Below are positions 38,797-57,633 of a stretch of 64,000 nt of DNA, one piece after another. Under the pieces are notes generated by a model. It was not told the DNA's origin, ran no database searches, and was given only the letters and a program-made list of their open reading frames with translations. Source of the DNA: an uncultured Candidatus Saccharibacteria bacterium (GTDB taxonomy: Bacteria; Patescibacteriota; Minisyncoccia; UBA6257; UBA11618); the NCBI GenBank assembly GCA_964436175.1, contig CAYTBX010000001.1, forward strand, positions 24,306 through 88,305, written 5' to 3'. A program made the position numbers and the translations under genes. Every line of letters begins with the position of its first letter. Positions within the stretch are counted from its first letter, which is position 1.

Positions 38797-39189
38797 TTAA
38801 TTAAATGTAATTAAGAAATTATACATACCCATGCCGCAGAGGCCTTGGAGTTCCGCTCCCGCCGCTTGGGGTGGCACGGGGATGTCCGTCATGCCAGTCA
38901 TTGGTAGATTGCTGCGGTAGCCGATAGCAGGGATTATAAGTGACGACGAGCAGTCGAATGTGCCTTTAGTGTTCATGCGGATGATCGTTGGCACGCCGGC
39001 TTTGGCTAATGTTGTTTGTGGTGCGTAGCCGCCCTTCGCGCTGATTTCGATTATTTGTGTGCCGTCTACGACGCTTACGTTATTTAATCCTGCTAAAAGG
39101 TCATTTGGATTATTTGTTGTGCGTGCGAAAAGAATTGTGCCTACAATAAGGACAATAGCGATGCCGATAGAAAGAAGAATTGTTTTCAT
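38797..39189 (-). CDS. Membrane-anchored cupredoxin-like domain protein
   Basis: N-terminal TM segment, then IIEISAKGGYAPQ...TFDCSSSLIIP...LCGMGMYNFLITF (the CGMGM-type C-terminal motif seen in copper-locus cupredoxin-like proteins). Confidence 0.55.
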   Translation of the reverse strand: MKTILLSIGIAIVLIVGTILFARTTNNPNDLLAGLNNVSVVDGTQIIEISAKGGYAPQTTLAKAGVPTIIRMNTKGTFDCSSSLIIPAIGYRSNLPMTGMTDIPVPPQAAGAELQGLCGMGMYNFLITFN

Positions 39190-40205
39190 ATAGTAAGAAT
39201 AGGCGGAATGACGCCGAATGCAACGAGGGCGCTTATCAGGTTGAAAATAGCGAAGAATATAACAATAAGCCCCGCGGTTTTAAAGAATATTCCTGATTGC
39301 GCTTTTGTGTGCAGCCCCAGTGCGCCAAAAGAGAGAAGTGCGAGTACGGGTAACGTGCCGAGCGCGAACGAGAGCATGGTAAGCGAACCCGCCCAAAAGC
39401 TGCCAGTCGAAAGCGAATAGAGTTGCATCGATTGCGTGAATCCGCAGGGTAAAAAAAACGTGGCGGTGCCGAGGAGTGCGGGTGTTAATGAGTGGTTAAT
39501 GTCTTTAAGTGCATGGGCGCGCCTACTTATAAAGCGTGGCGTGACAAGTTGAAATTTTTTTATCCACGGGAAGATATCGAGCAGATTTATACCGAGAATT
39601 AATAAGACGATTGCGACGGCGATTCCCATGGCGAATGCGCCGGTTGGGCCGATTTGGAACGTTGCGCCGAGCGTGCCGATTATGCCGCCTAAGACGAAGA
39701 ACGATACGAGGCGTGCGGCATGGAAGAGGATTTGCGGCCGGATACGGTCCCCTGCCTTCGCGAAGTTGGCGCTTATGGAAAGCGTGAGCCCGCCCACGAC
39801 CGCCATGCAGGTGGAGACGGATGCGACGAGCCCGATTGCGAACGCCGTGCCGTACGTTACCTGCGACGCGGTGATGAGGTTAACGATACCGAGTTTTTGA
39901 AGGGCAATGAAGATCGCGATGAAGGCGCCGGCGGCGGGTGCGGCGATTATAAAGTCGCGCCACCGCGCACCGTGCTTTTGCCGTTCTATCGAAACCGAAT
40001 AGCCGTGGGGCGCGAGTATGGTAGTAAGTTCACGTGCAAGCTCTTCTGGTTTTGTGTCCCCGAAGTCACCCGTAACTTCGAGGGTGTGCGTGGCGAGCGA
40101 TGCCCGTGCTTTTACTACCCCCCGTACGCCCGTTAGCTCGCTTTCCGTGAGCAGTACGCACGAGGCGCAGTGCATACCGCTTATGTGGAATAGGTATGTT
40201 TTCAT
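39186..40205 (-). CDS. HMA (heavy-metal-associated) domain fused to a polytopic DsbD/CcdA-like membrane domain
   Basis: N-terminal GMHCASC metal-binding motif, then roughly 8 TM helices with membrane-embedded Cys (STCMAVVGG; FFLPCGF). Confidence 0.5.
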   Translation of the reverse strand: MKTYLFHISGMHCASCVLLTESELTGVRGVVKARASLATHTLEVTGDFGDTKPEELARELTTILAPHGYSVSIERQKHGARWRDFIIAAPAAGAFIAIFIALQKLGIVNLITASQVTYGTAFAIGLVASVSTCMAVVGGLTLSISANFAKAGDRIRPQILFHAARLVSFFVLGGIIGTLGATFQIGPTGAFAMGIAVAIVLLILGINLLDIFPWIKKFQLVTPRFISRRAHALKDINHSLTPALLGTATFFLPCGFTQSMQLYSLSTGSFWAGSLTMLSFALGTLPVLALLSFGALGLHTKAQSGIFFKTAGLIVIFFAIFNLISALVAFGVIPPILTI

Positions 40206-40209
40206 GGGT

Positions 40210-42510
40210 TTATATTTTCTTGGCTTTCAATCGAAGCGAGTTAGCGACCACGGAGACGGAGGAAAGCGCCATGGCTGCGCCGGCGAATACCGGCGAGAGC
40301 GTTAACCCGAAAGCGGGGTATAAGGCGCCCGCGGCAAGCGGAATGCCTACTACGTTGTACGCGAATGCCCAGAAGAGGTTTTGGCGGATGCCGCGCATAG
40401 TGAGCCGCGAAAGACGAATTGCCTTTACGAGTTTGCTAATGTCGCCATGCAGGAGGGTGATGCCGGCCGTCTCGATTGCCACGTCCGTGCCCGTTCCCAT
40501 GGCGATACCGACGTTCGCTTGCGCGAGTGCTGGTGCGTCGTTTACGCCATCCCCTACCATAGCGACAATACGCCCTGCTTTTTGCAACTCTCTTATTTTT
40601 TTAAGCTTTTCATCCGGAAGGACTTCAGCGATCACTTCGTCTATTCCTACTGCGCGGGCAATTGCGTTTGCAGTATTTTCAGTATCGCCGGTAAGTATGA
40701 TGGTTTTTATGCCCATCTCGTGGAGGCTGCGCACTGCCTCAACCGCCTCTGCTTTTACGCTATCCGCAATCATTACAATTGCGAGTACTTCTTTTTCGTT
40801 TGCGAGTAGTATTGGCGTTGATCCTTTTTGCGTTTCCGTTTCGATATGGCTCACATCGAAAGAAATTGCACGCTCGTTCATAAGGGCGGCATTGCCGGCA
40901 AAGTAGCGCGTGCCATTAATGCTTCCCGTGAGCCCTTTGCCTTTTAAGGCTTCGAAATTCGTAGCGGCTCGTAGCTGGATACCGTTCGTTTTCGCGTATT
41001 CCGTTATGGCGTGAGCTATCGGGTGTTCGGACTTCGCTTCAAGCGATGCGAGGATAGCGATTAATTCATTTTTTTCAACGTTCCCATACGTGCGGATATC
41101 CGTGAGTTCCGGTTTGCCTTTCGTGATGGTGCCGGTCTTATCCATGACGACGGTGTTTGCCTTGTGGAGCGTTTCGAGCGTTGCCGCGTCTTTTATTAGG
41201 ATGCCTTCTTCTGCTCCCTTGCCTACGCCCACGATTATTGCGGTCGGTGTCGCGAGCCCCAAAGCGCAGGGGCAGGCAATAACGAGAACGCCAACGAATG
41301 AGGCGAGGCCGTACGAAAGTGCGAGCGCTCCGCCGAGTGCAGGCGTGCCGATAATAATCCATGCGGCGAGCGATACGAATGCTATGCCGAGAGTTATCGG
41401 TACGAAGACGGCTGATAGTTTGTCTGCAAGCGCCTGAATGGGCGCGCGGCTCCCCTGCGCCTCTTGCACCATAAGGACGATGCGGGCGAGTAAAGTCTCC
41501 TTACCAACCTTAGTTGCCGTAAACGTAAAAGACCCCGTGGTATTAATAGTGCCGGCAACGACCGCGTCGCCCGCGCCTTTTTTGACGGGCATTGGCTCGC
41601 CGGTCACCATCGACTCGTCGACGAACGATTCCCCTTCCGTAACCGTACCGTCTACAGGAATACGCGCGCCTGGTTTTACGATTATACGGTCGCCGTGCAC
41701 TACTTCGCCTACGGGCAGTTCTATTTCTTTGCCGCCACGGATTACGAGCGCGGTTTTTGCTTGGAGGTTAAGTAGTTTTTCGAGTGCTGCGCCGGTTTTT
41801 AATTTTGCCCGCGCCTCGAGATATTTGCCGAGAGTTATAAAAGCGATAACAACGATAGTGACGTCATAGTAGGTTTGGTCCGTATCGATAAGGCCCTTAA
41901 GCGGCTCTTCGAATGCGGAGAGGATAAAGCTGTATAGGTATGCGACGGACGTGCCGATGCCGATAAGCGTATCCATGTTCGCGGCTCCGTAGCGCAGGAA
42001 GCGATAGACACCCATAAGATATGGCGTGCCGATCACAAACATCATGTACGTCGCCATCAAGGGCAAGAGGTGGTGAAAGAATTCTTTTGTGATTTCTGCG
42101 GGTGGGGCGATGAACCCGAATGCGGCGAGCATATCCCACCCCATAACGAAGATACTAAATAGGGTGAGCGGAATAGACGCAATCACCATATTTTTCATAC
42201 TCCTGAGTTCGGCAATCTTTTCACTTTTCGATTGGCCGAGTCCCGTATGCGCTGCATGCTCGCTTGCAGACATACCCATAGACTCTGCGGATTGCGCTGC
42301 GGGGCTTACGAGCGAATAACCGAGCGGTTCTAGCAGTTTTGAAAGGTCTGCGGTAGTTACCTTCGATTCGTCGAACGAGATTTTCGCCGTTTCGGTGGCG
42401 TAGCTGACTTCTGCCGACGCTACCCCTTCGGCCTTTTTGAGCGTTTTTTCGATAATCGCCGAACACGATGCGCAGTGCATCCCCTTTACTTTGTATGTTT
42501 CCGTGTGCAT
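40210..42510 (-). CDS. copA: Copper-translocating P1B-type ATPase
   Basis: HMA GMHCASC, the TM6 CPC motif ([11 protein letters not shown]), phosphorylation site DKTGTIT, and [10 protein letters not shown]. Confidence 0.9.
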
Positions 42511-42511
42511 A

Positions 42512-42778
42512 TTATTTGCGCTTAAGACGATACACCGTGAGTATCTCTTCCCGTGCCTTAGCTCCATCACCTTTTTTTATTTGGTCGAGGGCGCATGTAC
42601 TTAAATGATTTTCCATCAGTACGTCCTCAATGCCGGAAAGAGCCTGTTTTACGGCGGACGTCTGGGTAATAACATCGATGCAATATGCCCCCTTTTCGAC
42701 CATATCCTGCAACCCGCGTACCTGCCCCCCCACAATCTTCAGGCGCCGCATTATTTTGCTTTTCGATTTTTCGAGCAT
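42512..42778 (-). CDS. csoR: CsoR/RcnR-family metal-sensing transcriptional repressor
   Basis: 88 aa: ...[35 protein letters not shown]...HLSTCA. It sits immediately upstream of copA. Confidence 0.8.
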
Positions 42779-42787
42779 GCTTTATTA

Positions 42788-42804
42788 ATACCCTCTAGGG
42801 GTAT
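42788..42804. promoter_or_regulatory. Candidate CsoR operator, a GC-core inverted repeat
   Basis: ATACCC-tctag-GGGTAT, about 10 bp upstream of the csoR start. Confidence 0.4.
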
Positions 42805-42826
42805 ATCTCGTCAAGTGAGAGGATAT

Positions 42827-44374
42827 TTATCGTACCGTAAAGCTAAACATCATACCCGTTTCTAGATGCTCGGAAATATGGCAATGCGCCATCCATGTGC
42901 CAGGGTTTGAAGTATCAAGTACGATATCAACTGTTTCGCCGGCGGGGACAAGTACCGTGTCTTTCCATGCGAGATTCGTTTCTTGTATACCGTTACGATT
43001 TACGATAAGAAATCGTTGGCCGTGAAAATGGATCGGGTGTTGCATCGGGTGCATGGAATTCGGGTCGTTAAATATCCGGATTTTCACCGGTATATCTTTT
43101 TTGAATGTCCAGTCGATAGCATTGTTTTCCTTGCTGGTTGCTTGGTCAATAATTTTCCATTTAACCATAGCCGTATTCGACATGGCATTCATCATTTGAT
43201 TCGTGTCATCCCACTCAATGCCGTCAGGAGATGTTCTCATCATCGATCCGCCCATCATCCCACCCGACATCATTCCCCCGCCGCCCATCATCCCTCGCAT
43301 GCCTCCATCGAGAGTGAGGGTTATTCGCTTTGTCGGCTCTGCTATAAAGAACGTGCGAAACGGATTGATGCTTGTTATCGTTTCTTGGTTAGTTTGTAAC
43401 GTATTAAACATTTGCTCGTATGAGGTGCGTGCCCGATCGCTCGTGACGGTAATAGTTCCTAATGCGTATGTCTTCTCTGGCGTTCTGTTTTCGATAGCGT
43501 ATATTCCGGCTTGTGGCACAAAAATATCCACAATAGCCCTTTCTGAAGGGCTGAGAATGACGCTTTCAACAAACATAGCTTTTTCGTACGCTCCGTTATC
43601 ACCTCCGACAAGTTTTAATTTCAGGCCATTGATCGTGAAATTGAACGGGCGAGCATTCGCGGCATTTATAACATACAGGCGGATTACCTCCCCTGCTTTT
43701 GCCATAAGATCAAATTTTTCTTTTCCATTTACAAGCATCACATTGCCGTAATGGCCCATAAGCGAATGGCTGATTATATTTTTATCGAGTGCAATTTTTC
43801 CGTTTTCAAGAGGTATGTCAGAAAGAAACAGAGGCACTTCTCGATTTACCGGTGGAAAAGAAGCGGGGTTGGTAGGCGTAACGATAAACGCACCGTAGAG
43901 CCCCAGCCCTTGTCCATACACCTCCTTCGCATGCGGATGGTACCAGTACACACCCGCGTCGGGGAATGCGAGTTTGTATGAAAATGACTCGCCCGGCTTC
44001 ATTTCTTTTTGCTGTAGTTGTGATCCGTCAAAGGCATTTTCCATGCGCACGCCATGAGAATGAAGGAGCGCGGGCATATCCGTGGCGTTTTTAAAATTAA
44101 TGGTAATTTCTGCGCCTTGGACAACTTTAATGGTCGGTCCGGGGATCGATCCGTTATAGGCAAGCATAGTTTGTTCTCTGCCATCTATAACTTTAACGAT
44201 GTAGTCTGCGGTAAGGTTGTAGATAGCGCCATTTTTAAGTTCAACAACAGCACTTTCTGTTGCAATAGATGCGGGATCGCTGGGTTGGCCTGCAAATAGA
44301 TAATATCCTCCGCCTAAAAGGAGTGCGCCAATGATTGGGTATAGAATCGTCTTATTTTTCATTTTTGTTTTCAT
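42827..44374 (-). CDS. Multicopper oxidase (CueO/laccase-like) with a Met-rich segment
   Basis: HWHG-type copper sites (HPIHFHGQRF; WMAHCHISEHLETGMM) and a Met/Gly-rich insert MRGMMGGGGMMSGGMMGGSMM. Confidence 0.85.
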   Translation of the reverse strand: MKTKMKNKTILYPIIGALLLGGGYYLFAGQPSDPASIATESAVVELKNGAIYNLTADYIVKVIDGREQTMLAYNGSIPGPTIKVVQGAEITINFKNATDMPALLHSHGVRMENAFDGSQLQQKEMKPGESFSYKLAFPDAGVYWYHPHAKEVYGQGLGLYGAFIVTPTNPASFPPVNREVPLFLSDIPLENGKIALDKNIISHSLMGHYGNVMLVNGKEKFDLMAKAGEVIRLYVINAANARPFNFTINGLKLKLVGGDNGAYEKAMFVESVILSPSERAIVDIFVPQAGIYAIENRTPEKTYALGTITVTSDRARTSYEQMFNTLQTNQETITSINPFRTFFIAEPTKRITLTLDGGMRGMMGGGGMMSGGMMGGSMMRTSPDGIEWDDTNQMMNAMSNTAMVKWKIIDQATSKENNAIDWTFKKDIPVKIRIFNDPNSMHPMQHPIHFHGQRFLIVNRNGIQETNLAWKDTVLVPAGETVDIVLDTSNPGTWMAHCHISEHLETGMMFSFTVR

Positions 44375-46431
44375 ATTTTCAATTTCGGTTCCACTCGTTT
44401 TAGGAGTACGGCGTTCGTCGCGACTATGATGGACGACACGGACATAAGCAGTGCGGCGATTTCTGGACGGAGCGACCAGCCGAGGGATGTGTAGAAAACA
44501 CCAGCGGCAACGGGGATGGCAAGCACATTATAGATCGCCGCCCAAAAGAGATTCTGTTTCATTTTTTGCACGGTCGATTTGCTTAAGCGGATTGCCGCGA
44601 CGATGTCGTACGGGTCGGATTTCATGAGTACGATACTCGCCGTTTCTATCGCCACGTCCGTTCCCGCGCCTATCGCGATGCCGATATTCGCTTGCGCAAG
44701 CGCGGGCGCGTCGTTTACGCCATCCCCCACCATAGCGACGAACTTGCCTTCGTCTTGCAATTTTTTAACATAACTCGCTTTGTCTTCGGGCATGACTTCC
44801 GCAAATACGCGATCAATGCCGAGCTCCTTGCCAACGGCCTCTGCTGTTTTTTTATTGTCCCCGGTGATCATCGCGGTTTCTATGCCGAGCTTTTTCAATT
44901 CCATAATTGTTTTTGCTGATGAGGTGCGCACTTCGTCAGAAATACCGATAATACCCACGGCAACGCCATCAACCGCGATAATGCTTAATGTTTTTCCCCC
45001 TGCGAGCAATGTTTCAATTTCTTTTTGGATGTCCGTGGTTGCGATGCCCTTGTCGCGTAATAACCGCTCTGTCCCGACAAGAACTGTTTTTCCACCGATA
45101 ACCGCTTCAAGTCCCAGTCCCGCAAGCGAAGCAAAGTTGCTGATAACGGATATTTGGACACTCCTTTTTTCCGCTTCCGCAAGTATCGCCGCCGAAAGCG
45201 GGTGGCTTGATTTCGTTTCAACGCTTGCGGCATAGCGCAGGATATCTTCTTCTTTCAGCGCGTCGGTCGCAATCACATCCGTCACTTTCGGCTTGCCTTC
45301 TGTGAGCGTTCCCGTCTTATCAAGTACGATGGCGTTTATTTTTGATGCGCCCTCGAGCGTCGCGGCATCTTTTATAAGAATATTATGTTTTGCACCCAGA
45401 CCGGTCCCCACCGCAACCGCTGTCGGCGTGGCAAGCCCCAATGCATCAGGGCAGGCAATAACAATCGTTGCAATAGCAAAGGTGAGAGCCACGGTGAATG
45501 TTGCGCCCGCAATAATATACCAACCGAAAAAGGCAAGAATGCCCGAAGCAACCGCAACCACGACAAGATAAGCAGCCGCTTTGTCCGCAATCCGCTGGCC
45601 AGGCGCTTTGGAATTTTGCGCCGTTTCTACCATCTTAATAATCGAGGCCAGTACGGTATCCGACCCGACTTTCGTGGCGCGAAATTGCACCGAGCCGCTT
45701 TGGTTGATGGAACCGCCAATGACTCTATCGCCCATGCCTTTTGAAACTGGTAATGATTCGCCGGTAACGAGCGCTTCGTCAATTGACGTCTCGCCTTCTG
45801 TTATTTCGCCATCAACGGGAACTTTGTCGCCGGGCTTTAGTATCACGATATCATTCAAGATTACTTCCGCGCTCGCGATAAGCATTTCTTTGCCGTTGCG
45901 CATCACGCGCGCTTGCGGGGGCACAAGGTCAAATAATGCGCGAAGGGACTCCGATGTGCCACGACGTGACTTCATTTCCATCCAATGTCCGAAGAGCACA
46001 AAGGTAACGAGAAGCGCCGCGGCTTCATAAAACACTTCGCCACCGCCAATCATAGCAAGCGTGATACTGCCAAGATATGCCGCCAAAACGCCCGTCGCCA
46101 CTAAAACCGCCATATTAAGCTTTTTCGCTTTAAGTGAATAATAAGTACCGGTAATGAAAATAGATCCCGTCCAAAAAACAATCGGGGTAGTGAGAATGAA
46201 AAGAAGTAGATTAATCGGAATAGGCGACCAAAGAGAAAGCCCAAATACATTTACCCCTACCGGCGAATAAAGAAAAATCGGGATAGAAAGCACAAAAGAA
46301 ATCCAAAACCGGCGGCGCATATCCGCCTCCATCTGCTTTGCCATGGCGGGGTCCGTCATCGCGCTTTCGTGATCCATAGCCGACATTGCAGACATAGAGC
46401 GGTTTTTTGGATTGTGGTTTTCGTGATTCAT
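44371..46431 (-). CDS. P1B-type heavy-metal ATPase without an HMA domain; it has a His/Met-rich N-terminus and an unusual CPD TM motif
   Basis: [17 protein letters not shown], and TM6 VIACPDALGLATP (CPD rather than CPC/CPH). The N-terminus reads MNHENHNPKNRSMSAMSAMDHESAM. Confidence 0.85.
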   Translation of the reverse strand: MNHENHNPKNRSMSAMSAMDHESAMTDPAMAKQMEADMRRRFWISFVLSIPIFLYSPVGVNVFGLSLWSPIPINLLLFILTTPIVFWTGSIFITGTYYSLKAKKLNMAVLVATGVLAAYLGSITLAMIGGGEVFYEAAALLVTFVLFGHWMEMKSRRGTSESLRALFDLVPPQARVMRNGKEMLIASAEVILNDIVILKPGDKVPVDGEITEGETSIDEALVTGESLPVSKGMGDRVIGGSINQSGSVQFRATKVGSDTVLASIIKMVETAQNSKAPGQRIADKAAAYLVVVAVASGILAFFGWYIIAGATFTVALTFAIATIVIACPDALGLATPTAVAVGTGLGAKHNILIKDAATLEGASKINAIVLDKTGTLTEGKPKVTDVIATDALKEEDILRYAASVETKSSHPLSAAILAEAEKRSVQISVISNFASLAGLGLEAVIGGKTVLVGTERLLRDKGIATTDIQKEIETLLAGGKTLSIIAVDGVAVGIIGISDEVRTSSAKTIMELKKLGIETAMITGDNKKTAEAVGKELGIDRVFAEVMPEDKASYVKKLQDEGKFVAMVGDGVNDAPALAQANIGIAIGAGTDVAIETASIVLMKSDPYDIVAAIRLSKSTVQKMKQNLFWAAIYNVLAIPVAAGVFYTSLGWSLRPEIAALLMSVSSIIVATNAVLLKRVEPKLKI

Positions 46432-46435
46432 AGAA

Positions 46436-47098: not shown

Positions 47099-47123
47099 AT
47101 ATGCCGGTTACAGGCTGTTATTA

Positions 47124-49234: not shown

Positions 49235-52200
49235 TTATAGCCGTATCTTCCGCGCCGTTTTGCTTAAGAGTATCGGCATGAAGAAGAGCGATGTGATGGT
49301 TGAGGTGGCGAGCCCGCCTAATGTGACAATAGCGAGTGGATTAAGGAATTCTTTGCCCGGGGCGTTGCCGTTTATCACGAGCGGAATAAGGCCGAGTGCC
49401 GTGGTTGCCGAAGTCATAAGTATCGGCACGACACGCTCCCGCACTGCTTCGATGATTATCTCGTCGGTTAAATACCGTTCTCCGGCGCGAGTTATGTCGA
49501 GCATTCTTGTAAGGAGGATGATGCCGTTACGGGATACGATGCCGGCAAGAGATACGAAGCCGACAAGATGCCCGAGGTTAATGCTTTCACCCGTAAGCCA
49601 TACAGCGATAAGCCCCCCGAAGAGCGCGGTGGGGATGTTAACCATAATCTGCCCGACGAGGATCCATGACGGGAAGGAGCGATAAAGCATGAGCCCGATA
49701 AGCACGATGACGATAGCAAATAAGATCATGAGTCGCGTGCTATTTTCCTTTTGGCTTTTGTATGTCCCTTCATACGACAGAGTTGTATTTTCAGGAAGCG
49801 GGGTTTCTGCGAGGGACTTTTTAAGCGCATCGATGGCTCCCACGATATCCCCGCCTTCGTAGTTTGCGCTCACGACGACGACTCGTTTGCCGCCTTCGTG
49901 GCTTACCCGCGTTCTCCCTTCGTTGAATTCTATGGTTCCTACGGAGCCGATTGACCCGCCTAATTCTTCGAATGGCGTGTCTCGAAAACCCGAAAACGAA
50001 TTCCTGCTTTCATTATCGAGTTTCGTGACAACGGGAATGCGTCGCAGACCGTCGAGCATTTCCCCAACTTTATTACCAAGGAACCCCGATTCTATTTCTT
50101 CACCAAGCGTGCCGGGCGATGCGCCAATGGCCGCGAGCGCCTGCATGTCGGGATATACGCGAATCTCCGGCACTTTTACATCGCGTGACAGTTGCGGATT
50201 CGTGACGCCGGAAATTTTTTGGAGCGCGGCAACAACATCTGCGCCGTACGACCGTATGGTTTCGATATCTGTCCCGTATACTTTTATAACGATCGGCGCC
50301 CGCACGCCGGAAAGCAGTTCTTCGACGCGGTGCGTAATCGGCTTACCAATCGAAAATTGCGCGCCAGAATACGCATCGAGCACGTTTTGTATGCGCGGCA
50401 CATATTCGTCTATTTTTTCCGCGCTACCTGCCACGAGCACGACCTGTATCTCGCTCGTATTCGACCCGCTATCATGCGGATCGGCGCCCGCGCGCCCTGT
50501 AATATGGCTTACGCGCGCTACGAACGGCAGGGATTTTATAGCGTCTCCTACCGTCTGCGCATATAAGCTTGTCGTTTCAAGGCCCGTGCCGGTCGGCAAT
50601 ACGGCGCTGATTGTAAGGGAGTCTTCATTGAACGAAGGTATACCCTCTTTTCCCATGAATCCATACAGTACGCCCGTTACGGCAAGTAGCAGGGCAAGGA
50701 GCGTCCCGATTATTTTCCATTCCCCTATGATGCGTCGCAATATGCGGTCAATGCCGAGTTCGAACCAGAGCGCTACGCGGGCGGGTTTTTCCTCATATTC
50801 GTTTTTGCTTCCTAATAAAGAAGCAAGCGCCGGAACCACGGTGAAAGATGCTAATAAGGATGCGATGAGGGATATGGTGTAGGCGAGTGCGAGCGAAGAT
50901 AAGAGGCGCCCTTCAACCCCCGGCAGGAAAAAAACCGGAGCGAATACGAGCAGGATGAGAATCGTCGCCTCGATTACCGACCCTTGGATTTCTTGCATGG
51001 CGTGGGTAATGACCGATATTCTCGTTTCGCCTTCGCGCCGTTTTTCGCGTAATCGCTTACCGATATTTTCAACGCCTATGATGCCGTCATCGACCAGTCC
51101 CCCGATGGCTATCGCGATACCGCCTAAGGTCATAACATTCACTGACAGTCCGAGAGCGTAGAACACGATTGCGGTGAGGAGTACGGATGTGGGGATAGTG
51201 AGGAGGATTATGATCGTCGGGCGGATTTTTGCCAGAAAAAGGAAGACGATGATGCCGACGATGATAAATGCGTCGCGCAACGATCCTTCTACATTTTTTA
51301 ATCCGGCAGAGATAAACCATTCTTGGCGGAATAAATCGGTGTTTATGGCGATGCCTTGCGGCGCACTGGCACGCATTTCCGCTACGAGATCGTCTATTGC
51401 TTCCGTAACTTTTAAGGTTTCAGCGTCTGGCTGTTTGAATACGCGCATGACAACGCCCTGCGCACCGTCAATTGCTGCTGTGCCGCGCACGGTACTCGCC
51501 CCTTGTACAAACGATGCAATTTCGCCGAGGCGCACGTGCGCACCATTCTTGGCGAGTATAGGCAGTGCCGCCAAATCTTCAAATGATTCTGGCGTCACAA
51601 AAATACGGATCGGGTATTCGCGGTCTTTCTGTACTAAGAGTCCCCCTGATGTATTTGCCAGATTTATCCGCATAAGGTCATTGACCATTTCTTGCGTGAT
51701 TCCTAAGCGCGTCATCATGTCGGCATTCAGTCGTACCTGCCACTCGGCAACATCCCCGCCCATTACGATGACATCGGAAACGCCTTTTGTTCTGAGTAGG
51801 TTGGGCCGTAGTGTCCAATCTGCATAGGTGCGCAGGTTGGTGCTGCTCACGCCCGATCCTGTTACGCCTATCCATACGATTTCGCCCATCACCGAGCTTA
51901 TAGGGCCCAGAGAAACTTTTGCCTTGTCAGGAAGCGCGACACGCGTAATGCGTTCTTGTATTAGTTGGCGGTTGCGGTAAATATCTGCCCCCCATGAGAA
52001 TTCGATATTCACGATAGCGAGGCCGAACGATGCGACGCCGCGCACGCGGTCGACGCCCGGCGTGCCGAGCACCGCGCTTTCAAGCGGCGTGAGTACTAAG
52101 CGCTCGATTTCTTCGGGCGCTAAGCCGTCTGCTTCGGCAAAAATGGCAACGGTCGGCTTATTGATGTCGGGAAGAACATCAACCTTCATTGCCGTTATGG

Positions 52201-52288
52201 CAAAAACTCCCCCGATTGCAATGCATGAGGCAAGCGCAATGGTTGTCCATGCGTTAAACACGGCCCATTCTATGATTTTCTTGAACAT
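49235..52288 (-). CDS. cusA: RND efflux pump, heavy-metal CusA/CzcA type
   Basis: 1017 aa with 12 TM helices and two large loops; the N-terminus MFKKIIEWAVFNAWTTIALA is typical of the HME-RND family. Confidence 0.85.
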   Translation of the reverse strand: MFKKIIEWAVFNAWTTIALASCIAIGGVFAITAMKVDVLPDINKPTVAIFAEADGLAPEEIERLVLTPLESAVLGTPGVDRVRGVASFGLAIVNIEFSWGADIYRNRQLIQERITRVALPDKAKVSLGPISSVMGEIVWIGVTGSGVSSTNLRTYADWTLRPNLLRTKGVSDVIVMGGDVAEWQVRLNADMMTRLGITQEMVNDLMRINLANTSGGLLVQKDREYPIRIFVTPESFEDLAALPILAKNGAHVRLGEIASFVQGASTVRGTAAIDGAQGVVMRVFKQPDAETLKVTEAIDDLVAEMRASAPQGIAINTDLFRQEWFISAGLKNVEGSLRDAFIIVGIIVFLFLAKIRPTIIILLTIPTSVLLTAIVFYALGLSVNVMTLGGIAIAIGGLVDDGIIGVENIGKRLREKRREGETRISVITHAMQEIQGSVIEATILILLVFAPVFFLPGVEGRLLSSLALAYTISLIASLLASFTVVPALASLLGSKNEYEEKPARVALWFELGIDRILRRIIGEWKIIGTLLALLLAVTGVLYGFMGKEGIPSFNEDSLTISAVLPTGTGLETTSLYAQTVGDAIKSLPFVARVSHITGRAGADPHDSGSNTSEIQVVLVAGSAEKIDEYVPRIQNVLDAYSGAQFSIGKPITHRVEELLSGVRAPIVIKVYGTDIETIRSYGADVVAALQKISGVTNPQLSRDVKVPEIRVYPDMQALAAIGASPGTLGEEIESGFLGNKVGEMLDGLRRIPVVTKLDNESRNSFSGFRDTPFEELGGSIGSVGTIEFNEGRTRVSHEGGKRVVVVSANYEGGDIVGAIDALKKSLAETPLPENTTLSYEGTYKSQKENSTRLMILFAIVIVLIGLMLYRSFPSWILVGQIMVNIPTALFGGLIAVWLTGESINLGHLVGFVSLAGIVSRNGIILLTRMLDITRAGERYLTDEIIIEAVRERVVPILMTSATTALGLIPLVINGNAPGKEFLNPLAIVTLGGLATSTITSLFFMPILLSKTARKIRL

Positions 52289-52299
52289 GGGTTATGGTG

Positions 52300-54069
52300 T
52301 TATTCGTCGTGCGAATGGGGTTGCGACTCGTTTTGTACTGTACTGCCGGATTGCGGCGGCGGGGATGCGGCCGGTGCGCCCGCTCCCGTAATCGCGTCGA
52401 GTTTCATCCCCGGCGTTAGTGCCGTGTTCGTACCCGTTATCACGAGATAGCGGAACCCGCGCTCGAGACCGCTCCGAATCTCCACATATTCTCCAAGCTG
52501 CCTGCCCGGCACTATCGTTTGCTTCCGTACGGTATTTTCTTCGGTAACGATCCATACGAACGGCTTTGCTTCTGCAAATTGCACCGCCCGCCGTTCTACG
52601 AAAACGCCTTTTTTCGATGCCGTGGGGATGATGCGTACAGAAGCGCCTATAGGGAACGGCGTTTCGTACGGCAGGGATATTTCCGCTTGATATCCCCCCT
52701 TCTCGTCGATTACCGGACTTATGCCACGCAACGTCCCTTCGACGGAAGCTGATTCCGGCCGCCATGCAACCGTGAGCGGATCGCCCGCTTTCAAATCTTT
52801 CCATGCGGAGGGGACGGTAAAGAAAATAAGCTTTTCGGGATTGGAACTAGATACCGAGCCAATTTCGTCCTCGATCGTCACATACGATCCGGGCGTTTTG
52901 CGTATAGTAGCCATAACGCCGTTCCGGGGCGCGAATATCGGTATGATGCCGCCTGCCGATATGGCAAGTTTTTTTGCGAGCAGCTGTGCGCCTGCCGCCT
53001 CGTTTTGCGCTACGGCACTCGCTTTTTGCAATTCGAGATTTTGGCGTGCGAGGTCGTTATCGAGTTCTGCCATTTGACGCGCCAAATCGATTTCGATTTG
53101 ATACCGCTCGCGATCCTTCCCCGCTTTTTCAATGGCAATTTGGGTTGCCACATCTGACAATTCCTTGAATTCAACGCCTAAGGCGGAACTATCTCGAATG
53201 ATATCCGTCAGTTGATCGGCTGTAATTCCTTCCGTAGATGTAAGCGTCGCTGAAAGCAGAGCATTTGTCTTACTGAAAAATTCTTGGATGTCTTGCAATG
53301 AAGCCGTTCGTTCGCGCACTTTCCGCGCATAGGCAAGAAAGTAGCTTTCATAATTAATGAGCAGTTGGGAATCGCTTGCTCCTATGCCTGGCCGAAGATA
53401 GAGCGTGCTAAAAAACGGCGACAAGGGATTGGAAGACCCGAGACTTATTAATTGGTAGGTTTCCGTAAGCGACGAGGCGGCAAAATCCTGTATTTTCGCG
53501 TCGAATAGTTTCTTTTTGGCGTCGATTGCCACTATCTCGCTTATGAACGATGCGGATGCCGTTCCGCCGCCCGCGCCGAAAAATGCCTGTTGTTTTTCGG
53601 TAATCTTTTTCGTGCGTTCGGTGATATCCGCAAACGTCAGTTTCGTTTTTTGGGCGATTTCGCGCGCAGTCTGGAGGTCGAGCTCGGCTTTGAGCGCTGC
53701 CGCTTCTTGCGCGGCAAGCTGTTGCTGCTGTTCGGCGGAGATGCCGACGACCCGCACGTAGCCCAAAACATCCCCTGCGGCTACTTCTTGCCCGATACGC
53801 GCGTTCCACGAACTTATAACGCCCTCGCGCGAGGCGTGCACGGATGCGATATCGTTCGAGGCGACTACGCCGTAAAAACTACCAAGTCCTTCCTGCGCGA
53901 TGCCGTCCGGATCGGTATCGCCTACGGCGCGTACTACGATACCCGCGGGCGTATTTGCGGTAACGGCAGGCGCTTCGTCGTGCGCCGCATCGGCGAGCAC
54001 GACGGATGTTACACCGATAGCAGATCCTGATAAGGCGATCCCCACAAAAATAATACGCTGGTATATCAT
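52300..54069 (-). CDS. RND periplasmic adaptor (membrane fusion protein) with a long coiled-coil
   Basis: An N-terminal TM segment, the biotinyl/lipoyl-like hairpin GVISSWNARIGQEVAAGDVLGYV, and a beta-barrel C-terminus. Start taken at the internal ATG (MIYQRIIFVG). Confidence 0.7.
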   Translation of the reverse strand: MIYQRIIFVGIALSGSAIGVTSVVLADAAHDEAPAVTANTPAGIVVRAVGDTDPDGIAQEGLGSFYGVVASNDIASVHASREGVISSWNARIGQEVAAGDVLGYVRVVGISAEQQQQLAAQEAAALKAELDLQTAREIAQKTKLTFADITERTKKITEKQQAFFGAGGGTASASFISEIVAIDAKKKLFDAKIQDFAASSLTETYQLISLGSSNPLSPFFSTLYLRPGIGASDSQLLINYESYFLAYARKVRERTASLQDIQEFFSKTNALLSATLTSTEGITADQLTDIIRDSSALGVEFKELSDVATQIAIEKAGKDRERYQIEIDLARQMAELDNDLARQNLELQKASAVAQNEAAGAQLLAKKLAISAGGIIPIFAPRNGVMATIRKTPGSYVTIEDEIGSVSSSNPEKLIFFTVPSAWKDLKAGDPLTVAWRPESASVEGTLRGISPVIDEKGGYQAEISLPYETPFPIGASVRIIPTASKKGVFVERRAVQFAEAKPFVWIVTEENTVRKQTIVPGRQLGEYVEIRSGLERGFRYLVITGTNTALTPGMKLDAITGAGAPAASPPPQSGSTVQNESQPHSHDE

Positions 54070-54137
54070 GCGCCTATTCCACCAATGCGCCACAAAAATA
54101 ACACTTTTTTGAAGAAAGGATATTGTCATACGGAAGT

Positions 54138-55025
54138 TTATTGGCTCGTTTCGCCGTGCATTCCTCCCACCGCATCCGTCTCCGCATGAGTATCCGTATT
54201 CTCCGCCGCGTTCGCATCACGGACTACTGCAAGGGTGAAAGGAAACATCCGTACAACGCCATTCGTTTTGAATTGCGCGAATAAAGTGTATGTTCCGGAT
54301 ACGGGCACATCTAGGCTAAAATCAACATCCGTATCCACGCCTTCATGGGTTACTGGATGTACGTGCACGAAGTTATCCGGATCGGCGTGGGAAATGGCAA
54401 CGACATGCCCTCGCGCACCAAGATACGGCTCTGCGATAAGCGGCTTATTGCCACGCATCAAGGAGAATGCGAGAGCGGCGCCAGACATAATAGGCCGTTT
54501 TACGGCTAGGGATGCCGTTACGTCGGAAACGGCAATTATATCTTTTTCTTGGGAGACTTTATTAGCGGGTGCGGGTGTTCCGATACTAAGCGGCATGCGC
54601 ACTACCTGTGGTTCTTCTTCAACCGGATCGCTGTCGAAATATGCCTGATACGCCGTGTTATTTTTGAATTCAACATCCGTCTCCCATGTGCCGTTAGCGT
54701 ATGAAGGATGCACATGTTGGTACGAGGAAAAATCATCGCTTACGATAATCAAGTGGATTTTTTTCTCATGCGCTATTTTGATATCGTTTTCCCCAAACGG
54801 ATGTCCGTCTTTGCCGTAGAATTCGAACGATATCTTCTGCGTTCCGGGCGCAAGGAGCGGATTTTTGATCACGATGCGGGTTCCGGCGAGGCGGGCGCCA
54901 AGCGATGGCGTTGTTTCGGGTGCTGTGTGGGCAGTTTCGTCCGGCACGGCGCTGGTTATAAGGTACTGATATGCTCCAAATGCGATAAGCGCTATTACTA
55001 TAACGACAAATACTATTTTTTTCAT
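54138..55025 (-). CDS. Secreted protein with two tandem domains, each carrying an H-V-H-P motif; putative periplasmic metal binding
   Basis: A signal/anchor; SSYQHVHPSYANGTWETDVEF and DNFVHVHPVTHEGVDTDVDF. Confidence 0.5.
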   Translation of the reverse strand: MKKIVFVVIVIALIAFGAYQYLITSAVPDETAHTAPETTPSLGARLAGTRIVIKNPLLAPGTQKISFEFYGKDGHPFGENDIKIAHEKKIHLIIVSDDFSSYQHVHPSYANGTWETDVEFKNNTAYQAYFDSDPVEEEPQVVRMPLSIGTPAPANKVSQEKDIIAVSDVTASLAVKRPIMSGAALAFSLMRGNKPLIAEPYLGARGHVVAISHADPDNFVHVHPVTHEGVDTDVDFSLDVPVSGTYTLFAQFKTNGVVRMFPFTLAVVRDANAAENTDTHAETDAVGGMHGETSQ

Positions 55026-55074
55026 ACGGATTGAATACGATTAAGGGTTAATAAGCAACGCCTATAATCCCTTT

Positions 55075-55461
55075 TTATATCCGTATGTTATTGTCCCTAA
55101 TAAAAATAAGCCGTTCGGGTAAAAGCCCGATTATGGAAAACGGAGGGATATCGTTCCCTTCATATACGAATGCTGGTATCGAATAAGCGATGGGCGCCGG
55201 CATTGTCGCGGGCAATAATGCTGTATGAACGGCGTCATCGTTATGGCTCCGAATTACGCTGTGATCAATGCATCGCGCGGAATGCGTGCCTGACTCTGTA
55301 TGTGAAGAAGGTGTGGAATCGCCTGCGGCATAGACTACGGAAGGCGTGATATGGAGCACGCAGAAAAATAAGACGAATAGAACGCCGGAGGAAAAAAACC
55401 TAAGTAATCCATGCATATGGCTCTGACGAAACATTTGCCTGATATGGTACTGCATCCGCAT
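55075..55461 (-). CDS. Hypothetical His-rich small membrane protein; low support
   Basis: One TM segment; HTESGTHSARCIDHSVIRSH. Confidence 0.3.
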   Translation of the reverse strand: MRMQYHIRQMFRQSHMHGLLRFFSSGVLFVLFFCVLHITPSVVYAAGDSTPSSHTESGTHSARCIDHSVIRSHNDDAVHTALLPATMPAPIAYSIPAFVYEGNDIPPFSIIGLLPERLIFIRDNNIRI

Positions 55462-55557
55462 ATAATACGCAATTGTTGTGGAAACTCTATAACATCCTTG
55501 CTTCGCTTAGATATCAAATAAAAATATCCCTGACAGGATGTTAGGGATATTTTTATC

Positions 55558-55788
55558 TTAGGATTCGAGGTCGTGCTTTCGCGACTTAAATTCTTCTTTG
55601 TCTATCTCTCCTTTAGCATACCGTTCCTCGAGGATGCGGATAGCGGACTTTCCTTTCCTGTGTCCACCCGATGCTTCTTGTACTATCCGGACGATTACCC
55701 ATATGACCGCCGCCCAAAAAGCGATCATAATGATAAATCCTAAAAATCCCGAGCCCATAAAGTTGTCTCCGTAGAAGCCGTACATCAT
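55558..55788 (-). CDS. SHOCT-domain membrane protein (paralog 2)
   Basis: SAIRILEERYAKGEIDKEEFKSRKHDL; a paralog of the gene at 47600-47854. Confidence 0.6.
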   Translation of the reverse strand: MMYGFYGDNFMGSGFLGFIIMIAFWAAVIWVIVRIVQEASGGHRKGKSAIRILEERYAKGEIDKEEFKSRKHDLES

Positions 55789-55827
55789 ATGATTAATGTA
55801 TCTGCTGTTGGCTCTTGCTTGTCAATT

Positions 55828-56304
55828 CTATACTTCGCCGTGGCGGCCACCGCGGCCGAATCCTTTATCCTTACTGCCGCCCATCCCCCATCCCCTGCCT
55901 TCGTTATCAGTATCCTTTTTTACGTGTTTCGGTTTTACAACCTGCGCCTCCATGAAGGCTATCCGCTTGTCCGCCTGCGCTTGGGTAATAACGCCTTGCG
56001 TTACGAGCGCTTGCAGTTTAGCTTTCGCCTCCTGTATGCGCGCGGTCTTCATTTTTTTTGCTAAGTCTTCCTTCGTGATGCCGTGCGCGGTCGCCACGTC
56101 GAAGAGGCTTTTACCTTCGGCCCATGCGGCCTTTACTTCGTCGACGCCTACGCCGAGGAGCAAGGCTTCTTTGGCGAAGCGGGCGCTAATGGCCTCCGGC
56201 GTACCTTTCAGGCCCGCGTTTACGCCGTGCGCCGAGGCGACTCCGGCGGTGAATATGCCCGCGCTAAGCAGCGGGAAGAACGAATATATAAGTGCTCTTT
56301 TCAT
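55828..56304 (-). CDS. Secreted helical hypothetical protein
   Basis: A signal peptide followed by a Lys/Ala-rich helical body. Confidence 0.45.
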   Translation of the reverse strand: MKRALIYSFFPLLSAGIFTAGVASAHGVNAGLKGTPEAISARFAKEALLLGVGVDEVKAAWAEGKSLFDVATAHGITKEDLAKKMKTARIQEAKAKLQALVTQGVITQAQADKRIAFMEAQVVKPKHVKKDTDNEGRGWGMGGSKDKGFGRGGRHGEV

Positions 56305-56387
56305 AATAAATATAGCTTTGCGTTAATTATATGCTGTGCGGTGACTGGCCTCACATGTATTGTTACGGGTATATCATTCGATATATT

Positions 56388-57086
56388 TCAAAAACCATTC
56401 GCGCGTACGCCGCGTGCCTTGATAGATTCTTTTTCTTCGATACCGAAAACGGTTATCGTGTCCCCTATTTTAAAGGTCATGCCCGCGGGTAGATGTGTTT
56501 CGGGCGCTACGAGAACTAAGGATGTTGCGTCTTCGATGTTCCGTAATACAAAGCCGCCTTCGACGAGGCTGTCTATAGTTCCGTGCCGCACGTTTCGCGC
56601 CCTACCCACGCTGAACTGGCGGTAGAGCTGGCCACCCATGCGCAGGCCGCCATGGCGTGCCGCGCGGAACGGGGCACGGTGGAAGGGCGCTACGAATACG
56701 CTTGCCGTGATAACCATAACGAGTACGGCGATAAGCGAATACAAAAGCGGCGCACGATACGCAAACGAATAGCGGCGTACGAGCGTTTCGAGGATGGCGA
56801 TAAAAAGGAGGGAGAGCGCCGCAAGCGCCACGGGGATGGCGCGGAGAAACGGCATGAGTCCGCGCGTGCCGTAGAGGGGTGCTGTCCATGCGCCTGTTTC
56901 GCGCATGGAAAATACGGCGAAGCTCGCGAGGTAGAGCGTGACGCAGAATACGATAAGGACGCCGATGGCGAAGAGCACGCCGGTAAGTACGAAGTGCCAC
57001 TTAGGACGCATGGCGGTTTTGCCGCTACGTATCGCTTCGAGTACCGTATTGCGTATCTCTTCGTTTTCTTTATGCATATGAAACAT
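56388..57086 (-). CDS. Membrane protein overlapping the ECF sigma gene; a candidate anti-sigma factor
   Basis: Its start overlaps the sigma stop by 17 nt; 4-5 TM helices. Confidence 0.45.
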   Translation of the reverse strand: MFHMHKENEEIRNTVLEAIRSGKTAMRPKWHFVLTGVLFAIGVLIVFCVTLYLASFAVFSMRETGAWTAPLYGTRGLMPFLRAIPVALAALSLLFIAILETLVRRYSFAYRAPLLYSLIAVLVMVITASVFVAPFHRAPFRAARHGGLRMGGQLYRQFSVGRARNVRHGTIDSLVEGGFVLRNIEDATSLVLVAPETHLPAGMTFKIGDTITVFGIEEKESIKARGVRANGF

Positions 57087-57633
57087 TTTTCGCCTCCGCT
57101 ATTTTTTTAAGCGCGGCTTTACCCCGCGCGATGCGCACGCCGACGGTGGAGATGGGTATTTGGAGGATCTCCGCGATCTCCGCGTACGCAAGCTCTTCGT
57201 AATAATAGAGTACCAGCGGCTCGCGATATTTGGCGTCGAGTTCGCCAAGACAGGTATCGAGCGCGTGCGTGAGTTCCTTTTCGCGTGCCTGCCTATCCGC
57301 GGTTTCGGGTGAGGTGAGGTGTGGGAAGAGCACGTCGAAGTCGAATACGGGTATGGTGATTTTGCCCGTGCGTCGCCTGATTTCGCTTATGAATTCGTTG
57401 TGCGCTATGCGGTAGATCCACGGGGAAAAAGTGCGACTAGCGTCGAACGCGCGCAGGTTCATGTAGGCCTTTATAAAAACGTCCTGCACGAGATCACGTA
57501 CGTCTTCTCGGTCGCGCAGAAATTTCCGGCCGTACCGCAAAAGCTTTGGTTCGAAGCGGTCAACGAGTATCCCGAAAGCGTCCGTATCTCCGTTTTGGGC
57601 GGCGCGCGCAAGCTCTTCGTCCGTATGGCTCAT
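57070..57633 (-). CDS. ECF-type sigma-70 family factor
   Basis: Region 2 (DLVQDVFIKAYMNLRAFD...PWIYRIAHNEFISEIRRR) and a region 4 HTH (LAYAEIAEILQIPISTVGVRIARG). Confidence 0.85.
   Translation of the reverse strand: MSHTDEELARAAQNGDTDAFGILVDRFEPKLLRYGRKFLRDREDVRDLVQDVFIKAYMNLRAFDASRTFSPWIYRIAHNEFISEIRRRTGKITIPVFDFDVLFPHLTSPETADRQAREKELTHALDTCLGELDAKYREPLVLYYYEELAYAEIAEILQIPISTVGVRIARGKAALKKIAEAKNVSYA

Follow-up and report, generated by a model that had tools for sequence, protein, structure and literature searches.

A copper-homeostasis region of probable composite origin, with an atypical RND module, in an uncultured bacterium of the Candidate Phyla Radiation

We analysed a 64,000-nucleotide stretch of DNA (hereafter the window) from an uncultured Candidatus Saccharibacteria bacterium (assembly GCA_964436175.1, contig CAYTBX010000001.1, positions 24,306 to 88,305 of the forward strand), which carries a copper-homeostasis region between core genes: PNPase, an NYN protein and an S1 protein on one side, gpm and enolase on the other. 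The initial annotation presented positions 38,797–57,633 as a single copper-resistance island, suggested to have been acquired horizontally and headed by an extracytoplasmic function (ECF) sigma/anti-sigma pair. This observation is real but mis-delimited and in part mis-interpreted. The region is probably a composite of three parts: a resident copper operon, an accessory cluster of about 13 kb swapped into it, and an independent ECF unit. Within the accessory cluster, a module of the resistance–nodulation–division (RND) type departs from the defining features of the Cus and Czc systems. The organism, a Parcubacterium judged by its housekeeping genes, belongs to a clade of the Candidate Phyla Radiation (CPR) that is treated as monoderm (bioRxiv 10.1101/2021.05.31.446380). 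Homologues of its pump and of its CopA carry names such as Patescibacteria, Paceibacterota, Magasanikbacteria and Andersenbacteria.

Resident operon and probable accessory cluster

The features that define the limits of the region and its resident part are as follows.

59.3–60.7 kb: enolase, core flank
58146–58631, minus strand: unknown basic protein of 161 amino acids, first gene in the segment missing from the closest relative, L002
57678–58067, minus strand: DUF2177 membrane protein (PF09945, E 2e-36), absent from L002 at this locus
42788–42804: CsoR-operator-like palindrome ATACCC-N5-GGGTAT, overlapping a -10-like TATTAAT
42512–42778, minus strand: CsoR-family Cu(I) repressor (PF02583, E 3e-23) with the C-H-C signature
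40210–42510, minus strand: CopA with HMA domain and CPC motif (TIGR01511, 604 bits against a cut-off of 397; HMA E 2e-15)
39186–40205, minus strand: HMA-fused DsbD_2 (CcdA-like) membrane protein, resident, 92% amino-acid identity to L002
38797–39189, minus strand: cupredoxin-like secreted protein, resident, 89% amino-acid identity to L002, weak PF13473 match

The closest genome, L002, is a metagenome-assembled genome (MAG) of a Parcubacteria group bacterium (CALRGO010000001.1) whose enolase is 93% identical at the amino-acid level, the next matches reaching at most 68%; it is the sole close relative that can be compared at this locus. Blastn aligned L002 and the window in three collinear blocks at 85–87% nucleotide identity, namely 60680–58731 (enolase and gpm), 42489–37944 (copA, the HMA–DsbD gene, the cupredoxin-like gene and a PD-(D/E)XK nuclease gene) and 36567–32193 (S1, NYN and PNPase). 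The gene order in L002 is enolase, gpm, a different csoR, copA, HMA/DsbD, cupredoxin and nuclease, and window positions 42,489–58,731 are absent. Between gpm and copA, L002 holds only a gene for a 95-residue CsoR-family protein, which has its own palindromic operator and cannot be matched to the window csoR in a DNA alignment.

This comparison shifts the limits of the island from 38,797–57,633 to 42,489–58,731. The genes shared with L002 in the same place at 89–92% amino-acid identity, copA and the three that follow it, are for that reason resident. Among them is the nuclease (about 90%), which the initial annotation had called Cas4-like and assigned to a neighbouring candidate acquired block. 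The genes at 57.7–58.6 kb had been placed outside the island, yet DUF2177 and the unknown gene both fall within the segment missing from L002. Nor does shared orientation serve as a delimiter, since nearly all genes from about 30 to 64 kb lie on the minus strand.

Much of the missing segment recurs elsewhere. Contig L084 (GCA_021731525.1) is 94.9–97.2% identical at the nucleotide level to window positions 55,387–44,263, as far as the end of that contig; the genes upstream of this match in L084 (GIY-YIG, TfoX_N, VIT1, DUF1761) have no equivalent in the window. L082/L085 (GCA_021733325.1) shares this flank with L084 and, at about 77% nucleotide identity, the order of the cluster genes with the window. 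The order in L082 is g5, g6, adaptor, pump, TrmB/PAS, Hsp20, SHOCT, an 88-residue protein, DUF2933, ICMT, P1B ATPase, an extra beta-propeller gene, multicopper oxidase, csoR and copA. Downstream of copA, L082/L085 carries other copper and redox genes and then a prophage-like block with a terminase gene. This block abuts the copper cluster and includes, at 17259–21771 of L085, two N6/N4 DNA methyltransferase genes, an HTH_Tnp-like gene and a large-terminase-like gene; it is a possible vehicle for the cluster. A further contig, L083, carries a compact, rearranged version of the cluster in yet another context.

The junction of the two histories lies within copA. The first approximately 430 nucleotides of the gene are nearer to L082 and the remainder nearer to L002: informative sites divide 88:26 (L082:L002) before a breakpoint at 42081/42076 and 49:110 after it, and the maximum-chi-square value at this breakpoint was reached in none of 2000 permutations. 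The csoR of the window goes with the accessory side as well, its product being 95% identical in amino acids to the L082 copy.

Taken together, the absence from L002, the 95–97% identical copy in another context, the mosaic copA and a deviant third-position composition described below bear out the initial proposal of horizontal acquisition for a part of the region, which is very probably accessory and acquired, as judged from sequence comparison. The first part of the proposed composite would be the resident operon csoR–copA–(HMA–DsbD_2)–cupredoxin-like, common to L002. The second would be the accessory cluster, at about 42.1–55.4 kb, which would have replaced the resident csoR and the 5' part of copA via homologous recombination, with one crossover about 430 nucleotides into copA and with incoming DNA made up of the cluster, its csoR and the 5' end of copA. 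The cluster would thus have brought the g5–g6–adaptor–pump module with the TrmB-PAS regulator after it, the Hsp20/small membrane protein/ICMT block, an ATPase with a CPD motif, a multicopper oxidase, and its own csoR with operator. The third part would be the adjacent independent ECF unit together with the two unknown genes, at 55.5–58.7 kb, which is absent from L002 and host-like in codon composition.

CopA has the N-terminal HMA domain and the CPC (in the metal-binding transmembrane helix), YN and MALSS motifs of subtype P1B-1. The 88-residue CsoR has the Cys-His-Cys ligand set in a YC...H-x3-C pattern; its best NCBIfam match is RicR, below the cut-off of that family. ATACCC-N5-GGGTAT occurs as a perfect copy only once in the window, before csoR (ATACCCCTAGAGGGTAT), and fits a predicted GC-rich operator that overlaps the promoter of the operon under CsoR control. 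The 88-residue C-H-C CsoR, the GC-rich palindrome overlapping the promoter and the translational coupling to a CPC-type CopA with HMA domain are shared with the CsoR-controlled copZA/copA operons of Firmicutes and Actinobacteria. Unlike those operons, the one described here has no separate CopZ and runs on into the HMA–DsbD_2 and cupredoxin-like genes. A single 577-residue protein of L085 (14457–16190) contains HMA, DsbD_2 and Cupredoxin_1 domains in fusion; by this Rosetta-stone argument, the two separate proteins of the window probably work together.

All 20 minus-strand open reading frames (ORFs) enumerated in the initial annotation are present, according to the ORF listing and to Pfam and NCBIfam, and the family assignments support the designation of the region as one of copper homeostasis. 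Clear family support exists for the ECF sigma factor, two SHOCT proteins, the HlyD-type adaptor, the ACR_tran pump, the TrmB+PAS regulator, Hsp20, DUF2933, the ICMT/PEMT protein, two P1B ATPases, the multicopper oxidase, CsoR and the HMA+DsbD_2 protein. Matches below cut-off were obtained for the cupredoxin-like protein (E 3e-4) and a DUF2680-like protein (E 1.6e-3). Four ORFs have no match in Pfam or NCBIfam: the 'anti-sigma' at 56388–57086, a protein of 128 residues, the 295-residue 'HVHP' protein and an 88-residue membrane protein. They are nevertheless real genes, conserved in other genomes.

The RND module

The accessory cluster opens with the four genes of the RND module and the regulator gene that follows them.

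55075–55461, minus strand: g5, small Ser/His-rich protein, secreted or anchored in the membrane, that bears a C-[IL]-D-H motif and is conserved ahead of the RND genes
54138–55025, minus strand: g6, membrane-anchored protein of 295 amino acids with two CopC/CrdA-fold beta-sandwich domains (predicted model)
52300–54129, minus strand: RND periplasmic adaptor, 609 amino acids from the first ATG or 589 from the gene-caller start at 54069
49235–52288, minus strand: RND permease of the heavy-metal efflux (HME) family (PF00873, 672 bits)
48479–49204, minus strand: TrmB-HTH + PAS regulator, directly after the pump, as also in L082 and L084

The initial annotation named the permease a CusA-type RND pump. 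It probably belongs to the heavy-metal RND family: TIGR00914 (CusA/CzcA) is its best NCBIfam match, and in the PDB it scores highest with ZneA (347 bits) and CusA (320 bits), the multidrug pumps being far lower. The CusA assignment is too specific, as the TIGR00914 score of 540 bits is below the cut-off of 701 and the Met triad of CusA is absent. M573, M623 and M672 of CusA align with I560, T611 and E657 of the pump, and across 119 CPR-type homologues these positions are occupied by I/V, T/S and E. A CusA-type Cu(I) pump was rejected on the absence of the triad. In the same 119 sequences D603, H605, E613, H653, E656 and E657 show little or no variation. Transmembrane (TM) helix 4 reads AIG-x-LVDD-x4-VEN, which we take to fall between the CusA-type and Czc-type motifs. 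Residue 397 of this helix, one turn before the invariant Asp400, is Glu in 115 of the 119 homologues and in L083, Asp in L082, and Gly in the window and L084.

HlyD_3 and HlyD_D23 match the two halves of the adaptor, with some 220 residues lying between these halves, and the adaptor scores 94.8 bits against TIGR01730, whose cut-off is 94.9. Its length is 589–640 residues in six CPR loci, versus 377–388 in two loci of diderm type that encode an outer-membrane efflux protein (OEP). No OEP (PF02321) was found among the 40 window proteins scanned or beside the pump in L082/L085, L083, L084, L179 and L180. The absence of an outer-membrane factor, already remarked upon in the initial annotation, thus extends to all six CPR loci, whereas both OEP-encoding relatives (L177 and L178) have one. 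From its length alone, the additional segment of about 220 residues may substitute for the outer-membrane channel.

The protein g6 carries invariant His triads in each of its two domains, H91/H104/H106 with D131 in the first and H207/H221/H223 in the second. In fold, its predicted model is closest to CrdA, a copper determinant, and to the CopC family, which makes g6 a candidate extracytoplasmic metal chaperone of the pump; no CusF-like chaperone was found, and the CopC/CrdA-fold g6 stands instead. The g6 family is large (some 7,000 representative clusters, E <= 1e-3), unannotated and without Pfam match. Upstream of g6, g5 has no family match in Pfam or NCBIfam; it is an intact ORF in L082 (75% amino-acid identity) and L084, with an analogous ORF of 126 residues in L083, and the 95%-identity block common with L084 begins within it, at 55387.

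Among the six CPR loci, g6 precedes the adaptor in five. The sixth, L180, a distantly related complete CPR genome of 1.3 Mb from Hainich groundwater, has csoR–YHS–copA (1–2742) a few kilobases from a 640-residue adaptor and an RND pump (6058–11105). Since this pair has neither a g6 homologue nor an OEP, adaptor and pump would constitute the minimal conserved unit. In L177 and L178, a g6 homologue with an N-terminal HMBD lies upstream of the OEP, a protein of 210 residues, the 377–388-residue adaptor and the RND pump; homologues of this g6 sub-family are labelled Bacteroidota. One CPR-type pump (63% identity) carries the label Niabella. Similarly, contigs L004, L006 and L008, with a CPR-like enolase (61–67% identity), are labelled as Burkholderiaceae, Pseudomonadales or Gammaproteobacteria MAGs; these CPR-like contigs are probably mis-binned in public MAGs.

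The module shares with Escherichia coli CusCFBA its copper context, an HME permease homologous over the full length, an adaptor of the membrane-fusion type and a small metal-binding partner outside the cytoplasm. It differs in having no CusC-type outer-membrane factor, in the replacement of the CusA Met triad by I/T/E, in an adaptor about 200 residues longer, and in a partner that is an anchored tandem CopC/CrdA-fold His-triad protein and not the small Met2His barrel CusF. In Helicobacter pylori, CrdA consists of one soluble domain rich in Met and devoid of His (PMC9182242). From the crdA–crdB–czcB–czcA system of that species, to which the outer-membrane protein CrdB belongs, g6 departs by its second domain, its N-terminal anchor and its His3 sites. 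The likeness to the ZneCAB and CzcCBA systems of Cupriavidus lies in ZneA being the best solved-structure match of the pump and in the retention of an acidic or His-containing periplasmic site. Unlike in these systems, TM4 reads as given above and not DFG-DGA-VEN, no outer-membrane factor is present, and the neighbours are copper and not Zn/Co/Cd genes. A further parallel is with czcNICBA, in which, as in the window, the pump comes with an ICMT-family membrane protein and a small secreted one.

Copper may be the substrate of both pump and g6. This specificity rests on context, and the His/Asp/Glu ligands would also suit Zn, Ni and Co. Export of a divalent metal (Zn, Co or Ni) by a module merely clustered with copper genes is accordingly conceivable, though we regard it as rather doubtful. 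ZneA outscores CusA as a match of the pump; in the place of a Met triad, Asp, His and Glu are kept at positions aligned with the acidic site of ZneA; the His3(+Asp) sites of g6 offer hard or borderline ligands; and in L179 the triad of g6, adaptor and pump stands alone without copper genes. However, the module adjoins CopA, CsoR or multicopper oxidase genes in five of six CPR loci and in both OEP-encoding loci, the nearest fold of g6 is that of CrdA and the CopC family, and Cu(II) delivered by the neighbouring oxidase also prefers His and carboxylate ligands.

With copper as the substrate, CsoR would sense cytoplasmic Cu(I) and derepress copA, and CopA and the CopB-like pump would export copper. 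The multicopper oxidase would then oxidise Cu(I) to Cu(II) outside the membrane, and the His triads of g6 would bind the ion and hand it over to the RND pump, whose His/Asp/Glu site and long adaptor would expel it through the wall of a cell without an outer membrane. We tentatively propose, at a confidence well short of that given to the composite, that the module is a CPR variant of the heavy-metal RND machine, with a His/Asp/Glu pump, an adaptor of about 600 residues acting as a wall duct, and g6 and g5 feeding it, exchanged among Parcubacteria via recombination at copA. Besides the choice of metal, a further point tells against the working scheme given above: a single-sequence AlphaFold model of the adaptor had a pLDDT of 38 and was unusable. 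Literature searches turned up no paper on CPR heavy-metal RND systems.

Ancestry of the region and the ECF sigma unit

A different history of the locus deserves consideration, in which the region is ancestral and was inherited vertically, L002 having lost about 16 kb and replaced its csoR. Composition offers this account some support. The bulk GC content of the 42,489–58,731 segment (0.503 versus 0.531) does not mark it, and its tetranucleotide usage (r = 0.91, against 0.83–0.94 for 5-kb core windows) falls inside the range spanned by the remainder of the window, so that the first of two compositional marks named in the initial annotation is not distinctive. The second, GC skew, deviates when third codon positions are considered. 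Between 42.5 and 55.5 kb, the GC content at third positions (GC3) is 0.52, compared with 0.61 in core minus-strand genes (p = 1.6e-4), and the GC3 skew is -0.02 compared with -0.19 (p = 2.7e-4). At coding-strand third positions the core genes, over 6400–64000, strongly favour C over G, with a GC3 skew of about -0.19, and A over T, with a value of about +0.19; this bias may reflect codon preference or replication-strand skew. Third-position composition is core-like in the ECF/DUF2177 part (55.5–58.7 kb), in copA and in the genes downstream of it.

Vertical inheritance would also agree with the host-like codon composition of the ECF part, with the arrangement being fixed in all assemblies of the window population, with HME-RND pumps and copA being very common among CPR genomes, and with the absence of mobility genes, tRNA and att-like repeats. 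We nevertheless hold it to be unlikely. Simple deletion cannot yield the state of L002, because that genome has a different csoR with its own operator before copA. Moreover, the 5' part of the window copA matches the accessory-cluster type, the cluster occurs at 95–97% identity in an unrelated context while the core is only about 85–87% identical to the nearest relative, and GC3 and GC3 skew of the cluster deviate from the core.

Several observations weigh against the swap of an accessory cluster into a resident operon, the reading that we prefer. The direction of the event, a gain in the window lineage, is inferred from one close relative compared at the locus. The organisms of the window and of L084 may be the same species, in which case a rearrangement and not a transfer could be at issue. 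Neither integrase, transposase, tRNA nor direct repeats at the boundaries were detected among the genes scanned and in a repeat search of the window. Finally, cluster GC3 is below that of the flanks in L082 and L084 also; for this reason the GC3 signal marks an accessory gene pool and not a particular donor, and the GC3 of the L082 and L084 flanks identified no 'native' donor. The 16.2-kb segment had no megablast match among plasmids and phages, and a scan of viral_contigs with the pump was likewise negative.

The unit between the copper genes and DUF2177, on which the regulatory part of the initial annotation was built, consists of the following elements.

57637–57669, minus strand: ECF-type promoter P1, TTGTAATAAA-N14-CGTACTATA, directly upstream of the sigma gene; best match of the position weight matrix (PWM), 22.2 bits
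57070–57633, minus strand: ECF (group 4) sigma factor (Sigma70_r2 + Sigma70_r4_2; TIGR02937, 108 bits against 42.9)
56388–57086, minus strand: three-TM membrane partner g2, candidate anti-sigma, overlapping the sigma gene by 17 nucleotides
56359–56391, minus strand: ECF-type promoter P2, TTGAAATATA-N14-CGTAACAAT, before g3; second-best PWM match, 18.1 bits
55828–56304, minus strand: secreted DUF2680-like protein g3 (weak PF10925), predicted direct ECF target
55558–55788, minus strand: SHOCT membrane protein, paralogue 2 (PF09851, E 4e-9), last gene of the ECF unit
55518–55556, minus strand: intrinsic-terminator-like hairpin, an inverted repeat with 18-nucleotide arms, a 3-nucleotide loop and a T-run

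The sigma factor consists of regions 2 and 4 only and scores above its family cut-off. We compared it with orthologues of 44–61% identity in 80 metagenomic loci (L090–L169). Of the 59 loci with enough sequence, 55 have a g2 homologue as the next gene after the sigma gene, and a homologue of g3 follows the sigma/partner pair in 13 loci; SHOCT paralogue 2 was not found in the 80 loci, and a metagenome scan using g2 alone found nothing. On the strength of this adjacency and of the overlapping reading frames, g2 is well supported as the cognate partner of the sigma factor. Pfam and NCBIfam revealed no anti-sigma domain (e.g. zf-HC2 or RsrA-like) in g2, whose topology comprises about 27 cytoplasmic residues, three TM helices and an outer domain of about 90 residues, and which may act as the anti-sigma factor.

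The motif TGAAATAAA-N13/14-TGTAnTA is common to 48 of 72 regions upstream of orthologous sigma genes. A PWM built from 47 such sites was run on both strands of the window and gave three matches of at least 16 bits, against 0.25 in shuffled sequence. Two are the promoters before the sigma gene and g3. The third (17.9 bits) begins at the start codon of g6, inside coding sequence, and is probably due to chance. An independent check on the loci with a g3 homologue showed, in all 13 of them, a motif of 22–30 bits between g2 and that gene. No such motif was found in the window before g5, TrmB, Hsp20 or csoR. A generic scan for sigma-70 promoters and terminators gave no excess of matches over shuffled sequence and was set aside.

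The initial annotation placed the ECF pair at the head of the copper island and envisaged target promoters upstream of its genes. As master regulator of one co-transcribed or co-regulated island, the pair has in its favour its position next to the copper genes in the same orientation, the weak match at the g6 start codon and the precedent of CnrYXH of Cupriavidus, which controls a metal RND system. The evidence runs against this role. The hairpin at 55518–55556 separates the ECF unit from g5 and the copper genes; apart from the g6 match, the conserved motif stands only before the sigma gene and g3; the homologous copper clusters of L082, L083 and L084 have no ECF unit; among the 21 ECF loci that extend for at least 5 kb to each side, only one has a copper gene nearby; and the copper genes have regulators of their own, CsoR and TrmB-PAS. 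We find such a master role very improbable, and consider the sigma factor and its partner to be a conserved, independent CPR module, not the regulator of the copper cluster. The sigma factor would drive only its own gene, its partner and the DUF2680-like/SHOCT genes, and the minimal regulon is predicted to consist of the sigma gene, the membrane partner and the DUF2680-like secreted protein.

ECF/anti-sigma modules such as SigW–RsiW and CnrH–CnrY have single- or multi-pass anti-sigma factors. The unit described here resembles such modules in its two-domain sigma factor, its coupled membrane partner, its autoregulatory promoter with a -35 element of AAC/AAT type and its small envelope regulon. 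It differs in that the partner has about 27 cytoplasmic residues before three TM helices and no recognisable anti-sigma domain, and in a promoter consensus specific to this CPR group.

An assembly or binning chimera, in which a foreign copper cluster is joined to a Parcubacteria backbone, is suggested by the metagenomic source and by a break between pump and oxidase in the assembly of one sample, but it was rejected as having next to no likelihood on independent contigs and on the identical internal order of the cluster in L082 and L084. In the ENA and Logan assemblies, the junction running from gpm through the unknown gene, DUF2177 and the ECF unit to g6 and the adaptor is reproduced in seven independent contigs and that of the oxidase gene, csoR, copA and HMA–DsbD in three, and the stretch from adaptor and pump to TrmB and Hsp20 is found in another contig at 99.98% identity; consequently, the junctions did not arise from faulty assembly. 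When the pump sequence was looked up for exact matches, fragments of the same population were all that came back.

Further genes and significance

The remaining genes of the accessory cluster lie between the RND module and csoR.

47868–48296, minus strand: Hsp20 small heat-shock protein (PF00011, E 2e-21), first gene after a 182-nucleotide gap
47600–47854, minus strand: SHOCT paralogue 1, syntenic in L082 and L084
47326–47592, minus strand: two-TM protein of 88 amino acids, syntenic in L082 and L084
47124–47321, minus strand: His-rich DUF2933 small membrane protein, syntenic in L082 and L084
46436–47098, minus strand: ICMT/PEMT-family membrane methyltransferase (PF04140 + PF04191)
44371–46431, minus strand: second P1B ATPase, CopB-like (TIGR01511, 569 bits against a cut-off of 397)
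42827–44374, minus strand: membrane-anchored three-domain multicopper oxidase with a Met/Gly-rich insert (Cu-oxidase_3, Cu-oxidase, Cu-oxidase_2)

The methyltransferase has an orthologue of 72% amino-acid identity in L083, and L082 carries a version of 36%. The second ATPase shows the motifs CPD (in the metal-binding transmembrane helix), YN(X)4P and MSVSS, the same as in its L082 and L084 orthologues. A canonical P1B-3 CopB, which would carry CPH and a His-rich N-terminus without HMA, was rejected on the CPD motif of these three proteins; CPD matches an atypical CopB-like subtype of Rhizobiales (PMC5552934). Compared with the 97%-identical L084 orthologue, the ATPase of the window has lost a 42-residue N-terminal HMBD (PF19335) by an in-frame deletion of 126 nucleotides near 46394–46397. 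A mobile copB–mco operon confers copper hypertolerance on Staphylococcus aureus and belongs to the accessory genome of a monoderm (PMC6191537). The window resembles it in the translational coupling of a CopB-type ATPase to a multicopper oxidase in the accessory genome, and differs in having CPD and not CPH, a larger cluster, and no plasmid or phage match.

Most genes in 42779–58718 have no Shine-Dalgarno sequence, and TATA(C/A/T)T-like -10 elements end 5–10 nucleotides before the ATG, for example at 57634–57645, 55462–55475, 49205–49220 and 48297–48310; this suggests that leaderless or near-leaderless mRNAs start in the intergenic regions of this segment. In the third part of the composite, the 161-residue protein has no match in Pfam or PADLOC, and a hairpin with a T-run follows its gene at 58086–58115. 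Searches for tRNA and Rfam families returned no match in the whole 64-kb window. A second indel relative to L002, of 1.4 kb at 36,567–37,944, contains a gene of PycTM type (Pycsar effector, 2TM) at 36573–37166 and a divergent plus-strand ORF of 247 codons at 37149–37892 without family match. With no recognisable cyclase nearby, the PycTM-type gene is an orphan defence-type effector.

The copper defence of this organism is in itself ordinary. Its architecture is moderately unusual, with copper genes clustered in the flexible genome of an unusual lineage. The region indicates that a streamlined CPR genome without visible mobile-element genes can still swap an accessory block of 13 kb, and recombination inside a conserved resident copA provides a concrete model of gene flow for such uncultured bacteria. 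The promoter consensus and predicted minimal regulon of the ECF sigma factor, which is widespread in CPR, should be usable for the annotation of other genomes. The RND module, for its part, offers a testable case of how a tripartite, outer-membrane-spanning pump may be built in a cell with one membrane.

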